Shown in pieces: positions 20,483-24,571 of a stretch of DNA of 64,000 bases. How positions within the stretch are numbered: position 1 is the first letter of the stretch; each line of letters opens with the position of its first letter. The notes beneath the pieces were generated by a model. That model saw only the letters and a list, made by a program, of their open reading frames with translations. It did not search any database and was not told the DNA's origin. The DNA lies in sequence record SRR2962707_2060, one strand, 5' to 3'. The translations under genes and the position numbers were made by a program.

Positions 20483-20911
20483 TTAACCGATAGAAACCAG
20501 TTCTACGTCAAATACAAGATCTTTGCCTGCTAATGGATGATTTGCATCCATTGTGACGGTTGTTTCATCAACAGCGGTCACTGTTAGATTAATCACCTGA
20601 CCATCTTGTCCTGTTGCCTGCAATTGCACGCCAACATCTGTCTGAATTTCAGGCGGCAATTGGCTGCGCTCAATGGTCTGTATGCCTTCAGGATGATGCG
20701 GGCCATAGGCCTCTGCAGCGGGAATTTCGATGGTTTTTTTGTCGCCAACTGTCATCCCACGCAATTCCTTATCAAGGCCAGGGATGACTTGGCCTGAACC
20801 AAGTTCAAATTTTAAAGGGTCGCGACCGTCTGAGCTGTCAAAAACGGTGCCATCTGGGAATTTGCCAGTGTAATGAATATTCACGGTATCGCCGTGCGCT
20901 GCTTCTGTCAT
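20483..20911 (-). CDS. FKBP-type peptidyl-prolyl isomerase with IF domain (SlyD/FkpB-like, no His-rich tail)
   Basis: HYTG...DGTVFDSS, GQVIPGL, AYG, DANHPLAGKDL.FDVE. Confidence 0.95.
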   Translation of the reverse strand: MTEAAHGDTVNIHYTGKFPDGTVFDSSDGRDPLKFELGSGQVIPGLDKELRGMTVGDKKTIEIPAAEAYGPHHPEGIQTIERSQLPPEIQTDVGVQLQATGQDGQVINLTVTAVDETTVTMDANHPLAGKDLVFDVELVSIG

Positions 20912-21032
20912 TATTACCTACTTTTCGGGGTTTTGTTCTGGGTATTTTACCCACTGGACAATCCGCATATCGCATATGCGGGGTGTGGGCGCACACTATA
21001 ATAGTTAGCTCATATGTAAAGAGTGCGCTGGA

Positions 21033-21061
21033 TTGACAAAATTTAAGTGTGGGGATACTGA
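21033..21061 (+). promoter_or_regulatory. Putative sigma70 promoter for the structured leader and the 143-aa gene
   Basis: Perfect TTGACA at 21033-21038, N17, then TACTGA (a -10 lacking the final T, common in Alphaproteobacteria). Confidence 0.55.
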
Positions 21062-21065
21062 GATC

Positions 21066-21170
21066 GCGGCTGAAGACGCCTGCCGCTCGCTGGTTATATC
21101 CATGGTGAAGTCTTCTTTTCGAATATCATCCACCCACTTGTTGTGCGGCTGATGGCAATGCGAGCCCCAT
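21066..21170 (+). ncRNA. Candidate structured RNA element (leader or cis-encoded ncRNA) upstream of the Ble-like N-terminal domain gene
   Basis: Complementary blocks GAAGAC/GTCTTC and GCTCGC/GCGAGC interleave; GCGGCTGA direct repeat; no credible ORF on the + strand. Confidence 0.5.
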
Positions 21171-21203
21171 TTATTATCTGCACGAAATGACAAGAGGTTT
21201 TAA

Positions 21204-21635
21204 ATGGCTGAATATTCGCGCCTTCCCACGATTGAAAAATTAAAAGCCGAGGCGAAAGTCTTGCGCGCAAAACCTGGTTCTACGTTAGGTCATAGTCAGG
21301 CCTTAGAGCGCATTGCACAGCAATATGGTTATAGAGATTGGAATACATTGCATGCTGCTGCTGGCAATGGCCCACCGCCATGTCCCGTTTCATTGGGGCA
21401 AATGGTTGAAGGTCACTACCTGAAACAACCATTTTTAGGAGAGGTTTTAGGGGTCGAATCTCTGAATGGTGGATCGCGTTATCGTGTGACTTTGGATTTT
21501 GCTGAGCCCGTGGACGTTATTACCTTTGAGGGAATGTCAAACTTTCGCAAACGCGTTCACTGCATTGTCGATGGCAATGGTCGAACAGCAGAAAAAACAT
21601 CAGATGGCATTCCGCAATTGGTTCTCAAATTATAA
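21204..21635 (+). CDS. 'Glyoxalase superfamily' protein with Ble-like N-terminal helical domain (Glyoxalase_8-type) and beta-rich C-terminal domain; function unknown
   Basis: K.EAK.LR...GHSQALE.IA..YGYRDWNTL.A signature; AAGAGG Shine-Dalgarno. Confidence 0.8.
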   Translation: MAEYSRLPTIEKLKAEAKVLRAKPGSTLGHSQALERIAQQYGYRDWNTLHAAAGNGPPPCPVSLGQMVEGHYLKQPFLGEVLGVESLNGGSRYRVTLDFAEPVDVITFEGMSNFRKRVHCIVDGNGRTAEKTSDGIPQLVLKL

Positions 21636-21677
21636 CTTGTCGACGGCAATCTAAAAAAACTAACGGCTTGCACGGGT

Positions 21678-23012
21678 TTAACGTGCAAGCGCCTGTTTGA
21701 GGCCATGCCAGCTTTGCTTCGGCGTGCGCTTTAACGTGTCGTAATCGACATGAACGATGCCAAAGCGTTTGTCATATCCAAGTGTCCACTCGTAGTTATC
21801 AAGCAGCGACCAGACCGTGTAACCTTTGACAGGGGCACCTTTGTCCATTGCGGATTTCATGGCCGCAACATGCTGGTTTAAATAGTCGCTGCGCCAAGGA
21901 TCGTCGATTTCACCGTTAGCCAGAACATCTTTGCCTGCCATGCCGTTTTCGGTGACGTAGAGCGGTAAGCCGCCGGTGTAGTTTTCCGAGATCCACGTAA
22001 ACAGCCAGCCGAAGGTGTCAGGCGATATTTCCCAGCCCATATCGGTTAATGGCAATTGGGTTGGCGCTTCTTTAATGCCGGGCCAAATGCCCGAACCATC
22101 ATCTTCGATGATTTTTCGTGTGTAATTATTGATGCCGATCCAATCGAGCGGTCGCGCAATAAGGTCCATGTCGTCCTGCCAGTTTTCAGGCAGGTGAGGC
22201 TCTATGCCTTCGAGCACGAGCGCTGGATATTCCTTCTTAAAGAGCGGTCCAAGAAAACATTCATTATATTGGGCGTGGTAACGCGCTTGCGCACGAATAT
22301 CTTCAGCGCGATCGGACGCTGGAATCGAGGGTTCAAAATTCAGATATATGCCGACATTATCTTGTCCTGCGGCACGGAGCACATCAACGGATTTGCCATG
22401 CGCGACCAAAAGATGATGTACGGCGCGGGCGGCTGCGCGGATATCGCGCATACCGGGCGCATGATAGCCAAGTAAATGGCTTAGCCACGTAACACACCAT
22501 GGTTCGTTAAAGGTGCCGGATGCAAACATGCGATCGCCAATGCGGTCGATTACATGGCTCGTAAAATCGGCAAAACGATCGGTGATGTCTCGGTTTCGCC
22601 ATCCACCCAGATCGGCTAACGCGGCAGGCATATCCCAATGATGCATGGTAAGCATTGGCGCAATATTGCGCGCCAGCATTGCGTCAGTCAGCCGATCATA
22701 AAAATCAAGACCTTCAGGATTGATGTTGATGCCGTCAGGCATTACCCGTGCCCATGAAACTGAAAATCGATAATGGTCAAAATTCGCAGCAGCGATGAGG
22801 TCCAAATCTTCTTCAAAACGGTGATAGTGATCGCACGCAATCGCGCCATCTTCCGCGCGTGCTACATTGCCGAGCACTGGTGCAAATGTGTCCCAATGCG
22901 ATGGGCCGCATCCACCAAAGGATGCACCTTCAATTTGATAGGCAGATGTAGCAACCCCAAATTTGAAGTCTTGCGGAAAATCGGCGCGGGAAAATTTAAT
23001 TGGGTTTTGCAA
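21678..23012 (-). CDS. Glycoside hydrolase family 1 beta-glucosidase
   Basis: FGVATSAYQIEG, YRFSVSWARV, TFNEP acid/base, VTENG nucleophile, WSLLDNYEW; TTG start. Confidence 0.96.
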   Translation of the reverse strand: MQNPIKFSRADFPQDFKFGVATSAYQIEGASFGGCGPSHWDTFAPVLGNVARAEDGAIACDHYHRFEEDLDLIAAANFDHYRFSVSWARVMPDGININPEGLDFYDRLTDAMLARNIAPMLTMHHWDMPAALADLGGWRNRDITDRFADFTSHVIDRIGDRMFASGTFNEPWCVTWLSHLLGYHAPGMRDIRAAARAVHHLLVAHGKSVDVLRAAGQDNVGIYLNFEPSIPASDRAEDIRAQARYHAQYNECFLGPLFKKEYPALVLEGIEPHLPENWQDDMDLIARPLDWIGINNYTRKIIEDDGSGIWPGIKEAPTQLPLTDMGWEISPDTFGWLFTWISENYTGGLPLYVTENGMAGKDVLANGEIDDPWRSDYLNQHVAAMKSAMDKGAPVKGYTVWSLLDNYEWTLGYDKRFGIVHVDYDTLKRTPKQSWHGLKQALAR

Positions 23013-23233: not shown

Positions 23234-24571
23234 ATGACGGTTCCTACAATATTGTGGATCAACCATGCCAGCTACATAGTTCGCTATGAAGATGTGGTTT
23301 TGCTTGTTGATCCGTGGTTTGATGGCCGCATTTTCAATAATGGATGGGAACTTTTATCCAAAACTCAGATTGATGATTGTGCGCTGGCTTCGGTCACTCA
23401 TATTTGGTTTTCGCATGAGCATCCGGATCATTTTTTCCCTCCCAACTTGATTGGTTTACTGGGCAAAATATCTATTAAGCCCACTATTTTGTTTCAGAAG
23501 ACTCAGGATAAGAGAGTCGCTAACTTTTGCAAAGGGCGCTTGAAGTGCGATGTGGTTGAACTTGAGCGAGGTGAATTGTTCAATCTCAACGAAAGCAGCA
23601 CAATTCAGGTTTATCCGCACGGCCAGCTCGATTCTTATAGTTTATGTCGCTTTGGCGATCATACTATCCTAAATCTAAACGACTGCGTCATTACGAAAAG
23701 CGATGTGGATAATATACTTGATATCCAAAAGCGGTTCGATCTGGTGCTTTACCAATTTAGCTATGCGTCATGGATTTCGAACCGCGATGAAACGGCCAAG
23801 CGTGAAAAGGCTGCTGCCTTGAAACTAGATGTCATAAAAAAACTTTGTGAAGCGCTGGAAATTGACGTGCTGTGTCCCTTCGCCAGCTATGTTTATTTTT
23901 GCCATGAAGAAAATGTTTATATGAATGACGCTGTACCCAAGGTTTGGACAATCGAGAAATTTATTTCGGATAGGACAACAAGCCGCCCCCTCATTTTGTA
24001 TCCGGGAGATGAATGGACTGTTGGCGATGCATTCGACAATAGAGCTTCAATGGAGAAGTATGACGCAGATATGCGTTCGCCAAGACAGCTCGCGTCATCA
24101 GATTGCGTTCCAATTGAGGAAATTCTTACTCAGGGCGAGAGATATTTAGAAGTATTGAATGAGAAGAATGGCCGGATTGCAATGGTTGCAATGGGTCTCC
24201 TATCTTTCCTTATGAGGAAAGTAGGAAAGGTTGGACTTGGGCCTGTTTATATTAAGTTGAGCGACAGCCCGCATAAGTTGAGCTTTGATCTCATTAATGG
24301 ACTTAAGCTTATGCATGAAACCTCGAATGTCGACGTAGAACTGTCGAGCGATAGCCTTAGCTACATTTTGAGATTTGAATGGGGCATGGCGTCGCTAGGC
24401 ATTAATGGCCGTTTCCAGAGCATGCATGCAAAAGGGCATCTTATATTGGCAAGGGCATTTTCAATCGGGCAAATAAACAGCACGGGAAGTACGTTACTTC
24501 GTCATATAAAGAAGCGCGTCACAAGACGTGAAGAATCGCCAATTCACGATCAGGAATCTTCCTTTATGTAA
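23234..24571 (+). CDS. Metallo-beta-lactamase fold protein, UlaG/CMP-Neu5Ac hydroxylase (CMAH)-like
   Basis: NHAS, VDPW..G..F..GW.L, SHEHPDH, ILNLNDC and CPFASY motifs; GGGGAG SD. Confidence 0.75.
   Translation: MTVPTILWINHASYIVRYEDVVLLVDPWFDGRIFNNGWELLSKTQIDDCALASVTHIWFSHEHPDHFFPPNLIGLLGKISIKPTILFQKTQDKRVANFCKGRLKCDVVELERGELFNLNESSTIQVYPHGQLDSYSLCRFGDHTILNLNDCVITKSDVDNILDIQKRFDLVLYQFSYASWISNRDETAKREKAAALKLDVIKKLCEALEIDVLCPFASYVYFCHEENVYMNDAVPKVWTIEKFISDRTTSRPLILYPGDEWTVGDAFDNRASMEKYDADMRSPRQLASSDCVPIEEILTQGERYLEVLNEKNGRIAMVAMGLLSFLMRKVGKVGLGPVYIKLSDSPHKLSFDLINGLKLMHETSNVDVELSSDSLSYILRFEWGMASLGINGRFQSMHAKGHLILARAFSIGQINSTGSTLLRHIKKRVTRREESPIHDQESSFM

Follow-up and report, generated by a model that had tools for sequence, protein, structure and literature searches.

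The 64,000-nucleotide stretch of DNA in sequence record SRR2962707_2060, which was analysed as a whole and is called the window here, carries on its plus strand a short gene (21204..21635, ATG at 21204) for a protein of 143 amino acids. Why is such a small gene preceded by so long a leader? An initial annotation, made from the letters of the window, described the leader as potentially pseudoknotted, paired it with a "Ble-like" N-terminal protein domain and proposed that this domain may bind the RNA. When read directly in the window, all of its statements on the sequence are correct. We find that nucleotides 21066-21203 probably represent the leader of an undescribed cis-regulatory RNA class, most likely a riboswitch candidate for a small molecule or ion, and on the comparative evidence below we give this reading a probability of roughly 55%. 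From the earlier interpretation a real, covarying and pseudoknotted RNA in front of genes with this N-terminal domain (N-domain) is retained, and the riboswitch-like option among those it offered is favoured, but simple cis-autoregulation is not general.

In a scan of one genome per species at least 473 genomes were found to encode a relative of the window protein, and the best 80 loci were kept. The proteins of these loci are only 50-62% identical and the record titles name alphaproteobacteria or unclassified metagenome-assembled genomes. The intergenic DNA of the window matches the upstream regions of the homologous loci (nhmmer, blastn) with exact blocks of up to 23/23 bases. The three blocks that the initial annotation had mentioned for other proteobacteria, GCCGyyyGC, GGTGAA and GGCAAyGCG, are present in this order 117-174 nucleotides before the start codon in 80/80 loci. 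Alignment A2 holds all 81 leaders (the window and 80 loci), whereas alignment A3, from which the covariance model R1 was made, holds 64 of the 81, leaving out 13 that are at least 90% identical to another leader and four with large insertions. R1 uses only the nested helices P2, P3 and P5 of the structure described below, and P1 and P4 are not in the model. Each of the 81 sources contains exactly one R1 match, and the rest of the 557,261 bases searched contains none; the match in the window (21060-21184, 93.9 bits, E 3e-21) is the sole one in the 64 kb. This match supports a whole leader RNA at 21066..21203, with an aptamer-like domain and an expression platform. Folded on its own, the window RNA (21066-21215) is no more stable than its shuffles (z = 0.10; 101/200 shuffles equal or better), which is no evidence either way, and in this single sequence the pairings do not exceed chance. 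The support for the leader RNA is comparative.

The aligned leaders share five helices, given here in plus-strand coordinates of the window. P1 is a hairpin (21068..21080) in which GGC at 21068-21070 pairs with GCC at 21078-21080. Its core has 4 base pairs, with an outer pair that is CG in 29, AU in 24, GU in 6, GC in 5 and UA in one among 80 sequences. The loop of P1 is the 5' strand of P2, GAAGAC (21072..21077), which pairs with GTCTTC at 21110..21115. All six pairs of P2 are changed on both sides. In a register-aware count at least five of the six are kept in 113/114 leaders, which carry 51 distinct 5' strands, and the mean number of pairs is 5.77 in the native leaders versus 4.60 with permuted partners; in the column alignment P2 is under-counted because about a quarter of the leaders carry a one-base bulge. 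Between P1 and P4 stands the near-invariant CC.GCC (21079..21084), of which C20, C21, G23, C24 and C25 are invariant in A3. P4 is formed by GCTCGC (21085..21090) and GCGAGC (21160..21165) and crosses both P2 and P5; RNAalifold finds it in A2, where it is paired in 81/81 leaders, and at two of its positions 31 and 35 sequences carry double changes that compensate each other. The P3 hairpin (21091..21102, TGG/CCA in the window) has 4/4 pairs changed on both sides and a loop that, judged by eye, is often a GNRA-type tetraloop in the relatives. P5 joins TGTGCG (21142..21147) to the covarying CTGCACG (21178..21184), with 7/7 pairs changed on both sides and about 90% of the alignment cells paired.

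Two conserved stretches are unpaired, UGGUGAA at 21103..21109 (G, G, U, A and A invariant in A3) and GGCAAU at 21154..21159 (G, G, A and A invariant in A3). Altogether A3 has about 18 invariant positions, mostly unpaired and located at junctions (CC.GCC, GGU.AA and GG.AA.G). In the variants of the RNA that precede MATE and VOC-domain genes, UGGUGAA is retained with few changes, and the sequence of P5 is wholly different in variants, e.g., CAUUUCG/CGAAAUG and GGCGAAG/CUUCGCC. The topology is that of a P1/P2 H-type pseudoknot with a one-base first loop, in which P4 crosses P2 and P5 crosses P4. The two interleaved helices of the initial annotation, GAAGAC/GTCTTC and GCTCGC/GCGAGC, are P2 and P4; the upstream element is conserved among the homologues, both helices covary and the pseudoknot topology proposed there holds. 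Of the competing pairings it had listed, nucleotides 21145-21147 belong to P5, where they are part of the 5' strand that covaries with 21178-21184. The octamer GCGGCTGA is indeed repeated in the window, at 21066-21073 and 21145-21152, but by eye in the alignment the repeat is not retained in other leaders.

The five-helix structure was compared with two kinds of controls. In the 81 leaders of the first set 82.1% of the cells are paired, versus 74.2% in shuffled alignments (0/500 reach the native value) and 34-46% when the partner strands are slid, and the covariation score is 0.324 versus at most 0.146 with slid partners; P4 is 100% paired. A second set consists of 33 further R1 matches (L114 was left out), about three of which are identical to leaders of the first set. 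Here 89.4% of the cells are paired, versus 67.6% in shuffles, with a covariation score of 0.604 versus 0.204 shuffled (0/500) and at most 0.142 slid. P1 and P4 are paired in 84% and 98% of this second set, and neither helix is part of the model by which the set was found. Comparison of the sequences thus confirms the leader as a real conserved RNA with multiple pseudoknots and five covarying helices, P1 to P5.

Downstream of P2 the leader has the features of an expression platform. Segment V (21116..21141), located between P2 and P5, is predicted to act as an anti-ribosome-binding-site (anti-RBS) element that pairs with the ribosome-binding region GACAAGAGGT at 21189..21198, which includes the Shine-Dalgarno bases AGAGG (21194-21198). 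In the window itself it is CCCACTTGT at 21133-21141 that pairs with GACAAGAGGT (21189-21198), giving a duplex of -6.5 kcal/mol. This pairing was analysed in 107 of 114 leaders, after four duplicates and three leaders without a recognisable Shine-Dalgarno sequence had been dropped. The native duplex of -11.66 kcal/mol compares with -8.47 kcal/mol when V is shuffled (native lower in 96/107, p ~1e-16) and with -8.90 kcal/mol when V is taken from other leaders (native lower in 99/107, p ~1e-16). By gene class the effect is present in 85/96 leaders of G8 genes, as we call genes of the window type, in 6/7 MATE leaders and in 3/3 VOC-linked leaders. In nested-only ensemble folding the Shine-Dalgarno bases pair mainly with V, at a mean probability of 0.455, and the conserved C..C of V pairs directly with them; in the nested-only minimum-energy folds they are paired in 86/107 leaders. 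P5 lies within the V-RBS helix, which is stacked on it and crosses P4. Since V co-evolves with the ribosome-binding site, control is probably translational, and in the window leader no terminator-like site is listed on the plus strand.

Other pairings were tried for the same region. A possible anti-Shine-Dalgarno element right after P4 (segment X, 21166-21177) was rejected, with -6.82 kcal/mol versus controls of -6.61 and -6.64 kcal/mol, and with p = 0.11 and 0.84 in a further comparison. At one locus (L105/L120, G176:C1) the end of the leader lies about 130-150 nucleotides before the G8 start and not at the usual 10-30 nucleotides.

The start of the RNA is consistent with the promoter. The -35 hexamer TTGACA is read in the window at 21033..21038, and similar hexamers occur in related loci. 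A search of 111 distinct upstream stretches, within 70 nucleotides upstream, found a site of the type TTGACA-N16-18-CTATAT/TATAAT scoring at least 9/12 in 96/111 loci, versus 4/111 in shuffled sequences, and in 93 of these 96 the -10 element ends 6-12 nucleotides before the GG of P1. By this comparison a putative sigma-70-type promoter is conserved just upstream of the leader. The best site of the window scores 8/12, with a perfect -35 and a weak candidate -10, ATACTG (21055..21060, spacer 16; alternative register GATACT, 21054-21059). The generic promoter scan of the window does not list the TTGACA site, because the weak -10 falls below the rule of that scan. Transcription would start at about 21066-21068, near position 21068 given in the initial annotation, and the conserved spacing of the promoter to P1 agrees with this position.

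Which genes follow the RNA was analysed with R1 in additional genomes. Five whole genomes gave nine matches; among 151 genomes sampled from the class of one of those five, 11 have a match, and among 41 genomes of the family of that same genome 16 have matches, 23 in number. These searches added 34 new loci (L086-L119). A gene follows the RNA in all of them but one, a match of 25.5 bits which is probably false, and likewise follows all 81 leaders of the first set. In the new loci the downstream genes are 21 G8 genes, eight MATE efflux genes, three genes for an N-domain fused to Glyoxalase_7, and one gene with an N-domain cut by the end of the contig. The MATE genes (PF01554, TIGR00797) encode no N-domain. 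In the fusions the N-domain, which covers positions ~7-59 of PF20066, is joined to a Glyoxalase_7 VOC domain (PF19581 and PF00903 match) with weak, sub-threshold similarity to the bleomycin-binding proteins BLMA/ZbmA; besides the three listed, four more weak RNA matches lie upstream of such fusions. The leader copies before MATE and N-domain plus VOC genes are diverged. In the 41-genome sample the RNA lies upstream of 19/19 PF20066-matching genes, 14 of them full-length and five N-domain only; the latter five have diverged RNA copies that score 16-42 bits with the filters off. The recurrence of the RNA upstream of N-domain genes, which the initial annotation had suggested, is thereby borne out. 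In one genome, the only such case seen, leader, MATE gene and G8 gene form an operon behind a single leader (L131, G191:C66; MATE 190-1584, G8 ~1584-1991). The common theme of the three gene classes would be the handling of toxic compounds. At one MATE locus (L087, 1151-1271, minus strand) Rfam reports a match to the Rhizobiales small RNA Atu_C8 (121 bits, E 7.8e-27), about 230 nucleotides upstream of the MATE-linked leader and on the opposite strand.

Along its full length the window protein belongs to PF20066, Glyoxalase_8 (E 1.4e-53, 181.3 bits versus a cut-off of 23.7), with residues 5-142 aligned to positions 3-142 of the 143 in the profile. VOC-domain profiles (PF00903, PF19581 and others) do not match, and PF20066 is the sole Pfam match at E <=1. 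An AlphaFold2 model was computed from 28 sequences, i.e., the window protein and 27 of 120 listed relatives. It has a predicted local distance difference test score (pLDDT) of 84.6 and shows three helices (residues 10-54) followed by strands only, which form a small beta-barrel (57-143). Pfam and the model agree with the earlier view of a protein with no recognisable VOC motif and a second domain rich in beta strands. In a wide structural search the barrel resembles Tudor, chromo, UvrD/PcrA C-terminal, EF-P domain I and CarD folds with middling Z values of 5.0-6.5, and the C-terminal half is predicted to be a Tudor/SH3-like barrel rather than a VOC fold; Foldseek of the model versus PDB gave no match at E <=0.001. 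The N-domain modelled alone reaches a pLDDT of 73.8, its best fold match (Z 4.1) is uninformative, and no relative was detected among the PDB sequences (best E 0.97). Its residues 10-55 (window 21204-21368) match the N-terminus of the NCBIfam model PRK05973, "DNA helicase", below threshold (18.7 bits versus a cut-off of 156, E 7.1e-4), a hint that other proteins may carry the module too; 0/45 candidates for longer fused forms scored, a null result that is weak evidence. PHROGs and PADLOC have no family for the window protein. At E <=0.001 its relatives comprise 511 clusters among 524 candidates, with a best identity of 85%. With the fusions of N-domain and VOC domain (Glyoxalase_7, weakly BLMA-like) the window protein has in common only its first ~55 residues. 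NCBI records give PF20066 proteins the name "glyoxalase superfamily protein". For the architecture of N-domain plus barrel this label is misleading, as the name is inherited from the fusions. The term "Ble-like" for the N-domain was likewise imprecise: the domain is a three-helix module in its own right, which certain other proteins join to a Ble-like VOC domain.

Several generic characteristics of riboswitches are found together in this element, namely a covarying structured RNA, placement as a 5' leader, a platform at the ribosome-binding site and several gene families. A mechanism can be proposed on this basis. In the absence of a signal V would pair with the ribosome-binding site, the resulting helix would stack on P5 and translation would be off. 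The ligand would bind the pseudoknotted core, made up of helices P1 to P4 with the invariant bases, and hold V or the core in such a way that the ribosome-binding site is freed. A default-off state is suggested because nested-only folds mask the Shine-Dalgarno bases while P1, P2 and P4 rarely appear in them. The RNA would thus probably be an ON switch, which fits a group of genes that looks suited to exporting, sequestering and tolerating a toxic compound, and by analogy the ligand is probably such a compound. It is a tentative proposal, to which we give somewhat less than an even chance, that the leader belongs to a new riboswitch class in which a triple-crossing pseudoknot aptamer senses a foreign toxic compound (e.g., a DNA-damaging or cationic natural product) and turns on a three-part tolerance set in alphaproteobacteria. 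This set would consist of the MATE exporter, the Ble-like binding protein and the protein of N-domain plus Tudor-like barrel as an unrecognised resistance or repair factor, and the bacteria that carry it would include Rhizobium, Agrobacterium and Sinorhizobium. In a bolder variant the ligand-sensing RNA and the N-domain would act jointly, and the protein would serve to read or reset the switch that the RNA forms.

Several observations weigh against a riboswitch. Only 26, 13 and 10 of the 107 leaders have P1, P2 and P4, respectively, in their minimum-energy fold, which may reflect the blindness of the program to pseudoknots. The shuffle controls do not correct for the relatedness of the leaders, as the slid controls do. 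A further helix P6a, between CNRUC of V and GRUGG before CAAU, which would hold V in the ligand-bound state, does not exceed its controls, being paired in 80.2% versus 78.1% in shuffles with mostly one-sided changes; the duplex energy of V versus W was not significant. The ON direction is itself drawn from gene content and nested-only folding. As to the genes, the N-terminal domain is shared by every class except one, the coupling of RNA and N-domain (19/19) would be equally expected if the domain were the partner of the RNA, and 8/8 genomes with a MATE-linked copy also carry a G8 gene with its own RNA copy. These last points favour the idea of the initial annotation that the N-domain of PF20066 and of the N-domain plus VOC proteins binds the leader, thereby repressing (or activating) translation from the mRNA that encodes it, and acts in trans on the MATE leaders as a small regulon. 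The coupling is near-perfect (80/80 loci, besides the 41-genome sample), the two different C-terminal domains have only N-domain and RNA in common, each of the eight genomes encodes a G8 protein that could serve in trans, and the N-domain has the conserved basic residues K14 and R21. Nevertheless, 8/34 further matches precede MATE genes without the domain, so that simple cis-autoregulation cannot be the general rule. Moreover, about 18 invariant, mostly unpaired bases in a multi-pseudoknot that is kept across distant alphaproteobacteria are more typical of metabolite aptamers than of leaders bound by proteins, the N-domain matches no known RNA-binding fold (best Z 4.1) and has no sequence relative in PDB, and a gene set with an efflux pump and a Ble-like binder suggests a small toxic ligand. 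We therefore regard binding by the N-domain as unlikely, albeit the strongest of the alternatives.

Less likely still is that the leader answers to another trans factor (a small RNA, tRNA, global RNA-binding protein or RNase), to temperature or to co-transcriptional folding, or that it merely sets a fixed low translation and mRNA stability. The structure and the masking of the ribosome-binding site were seen by comparison, and most predicted ground states engage the Shine-Dalgarno bases in pairs, both of which would suit such a leader. However, invariant junctions and three pseudoknot crossings far exceed the needs of a simple mask or thermometer, and the link to three particular classes of gene points to a specific signal. 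That the conserved region works not as RNA at all, but as DNA-level operator or promoter architecture or as a small upstream coding sequence, is very improbable. Some blocks are invariant and hence without covariation signal, and the high G+C content leaves many frames open, but compensatory changes are found in five helices whose strands are interleaved and 40-75 nucleotides apart. G-U cells outnumber A-C cells in the helices (232 versus 111), which fits a plus-strand RNA. No conserved upstream reading frame was found: an ATG stands at the only recurrent site in 19/112 leaders, start codon and frame are not conserved, and leader lengths modulo 3 are distributed 33/37/44. Finally, that a segment should co-evolve with the ribosome-binding site is meaningful only at the level of RNA. 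The RNA-antitoxin option of the initial annotation (type III) lacks support, as the defining tandem repeats are absent from 20900-21700 (score >=30).

The G8 gene stands alone between a divergent gene for an FKBP-type isomerase (20483-20911, minus strand) and a convergent gene for a family-1 glycosidase (21678-23012, minus strand). Between the convergent genes a G+C-rich hairpin of 9 base pairs (21666..21690), which is terminator-like on the minus strand, is a possible two-way terminator; it overlaps the stop codon of the glycosidase gene and may serve the plus-strand G8 gene as well. The intergenic stretch between the divergent genes holds a perfect inverted repeat, CCGCATAT-CGC-ATATGCGG (20963-20981), which lies about 50-70 nucleotides upstream of the FKBP start and occurs once in the window (chance expectation 0.04). 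It is followed by a perfect TATAAT at 20997-21002, and this may be an operator or promoter of the FKBP gene, or a second promoter. Further downstream, an open reading frame of 445 amino acids (23234-24571, plus strand) has no Pfam family at E <=1e-5.

If the riboswitch reading is true, the leader represents a well-defined orphan class whose boundaries are clear, which has five covarying helices and an expression platform and which regulates three classes of gene, in bacteria that are readily handled in the laboratory and important in soil and sea. It would also direct attention to a chemical signal or stress sensed and exported by these bacteria, and the identity of the ligand would make testable what the small proteins and the MATE pump defend against. 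The leader would then offer a direct way into the function of the mislabelled PF20066, which with its 511 protein clusters is present in at least 473 species genomes. The fold would be of structural interest as well, since an H-type pseudoknot of P1 and P2 is combined with two more crossings and the anti-RBS element is buried inside the aptamer.

The element was compared with known RNA families and systems. In Rfam 15 (4227 models) the region 20500-22000 of the window gave, at E <=10, three chance-level rows of 15-17 bits, none of them over the leader core; 12 of the 80 loci gave 0 matches at gathering score and six variant loci gave nothing at the leaders at E <=1. By this test, which the initial annotation had proposed as a check, the leader belongs to no known Rfam family. 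Motifs from large motif-discovery surveys are reportedly deposited in Rfam. Literature on PF20066/Glyoxalase_8, or on riboswitch candidates associated with MATE, bleomycin resistance, Rhizobium or alphaproteobacteria, yielded nothing relevant in our searches. The main texts of PMC11109978, PMC8632094, PMC5737381 and PMC6429828 do not contain the terms glyoxalase, bleomycin, multidrug, MATE, Alphaproteobacteria or Rhizob-, although their supplementary motif lists could still hold the motif. The element is larger and more widespread than initially described and, by these comparisons of sequence, appears to be an unreported class of riboswitch candidates.

Among known RNAs it is most like the translational riboswitches with pseudoknotted aptamers SAM-II, preQ1-II and ZTP/pfl. 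These also are 5' leaders on the strand of the gene, with a compact pseudoknotted core, invariant junction bases and control via access to the ribosome-binding site. With ZTP the leader further has in common two sub-domains, a variable linker and a conserved UGGCGAA-like stretch. Unlike all three it has five helices and three crossings, and its anti-RBS element is part of the aptamer domain itself, set between P2 and P5. Ribosomal-protein-type autoregulatory leaders have a similar one-to-one coupling of RNA and protein domain and a masked ribosome-binding site; the RNA described here, in contrast, also precedes MATE genes without the domain and is much more conserved and complex than is typical of them.

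In terms of genes, the guanidine-IV (mepA motif) riboswitch is linked to MATE-type mepA genes, and is a two-hairpin transcriptional switch of Firmicutes and relatives. It has in common with the RNA of the window a position before MATE-family efflux genes and a likely logic of response to a toxic compound. They differ in that the RNA of the window is alphaproteobacterial, translational and located mostly before N-domain proteins, and it has no Rfam match to the guanidine-IV family (bioRxiv 10.1101/2020.10.21.349134). The yjdF (azaaromatic) riboswitch resembles our element in that its aptamer is found almost exclusively with a single small gene family to which no function has been assigned. It probably answers to foreign toxic compounds. 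The two RNAs are unrelated in sequence and structure (no Rfam match), and the RNA described here differs from yjdF in serving two more gene classes, the MATE exporters and the fusions of N-domain and VOC domain.

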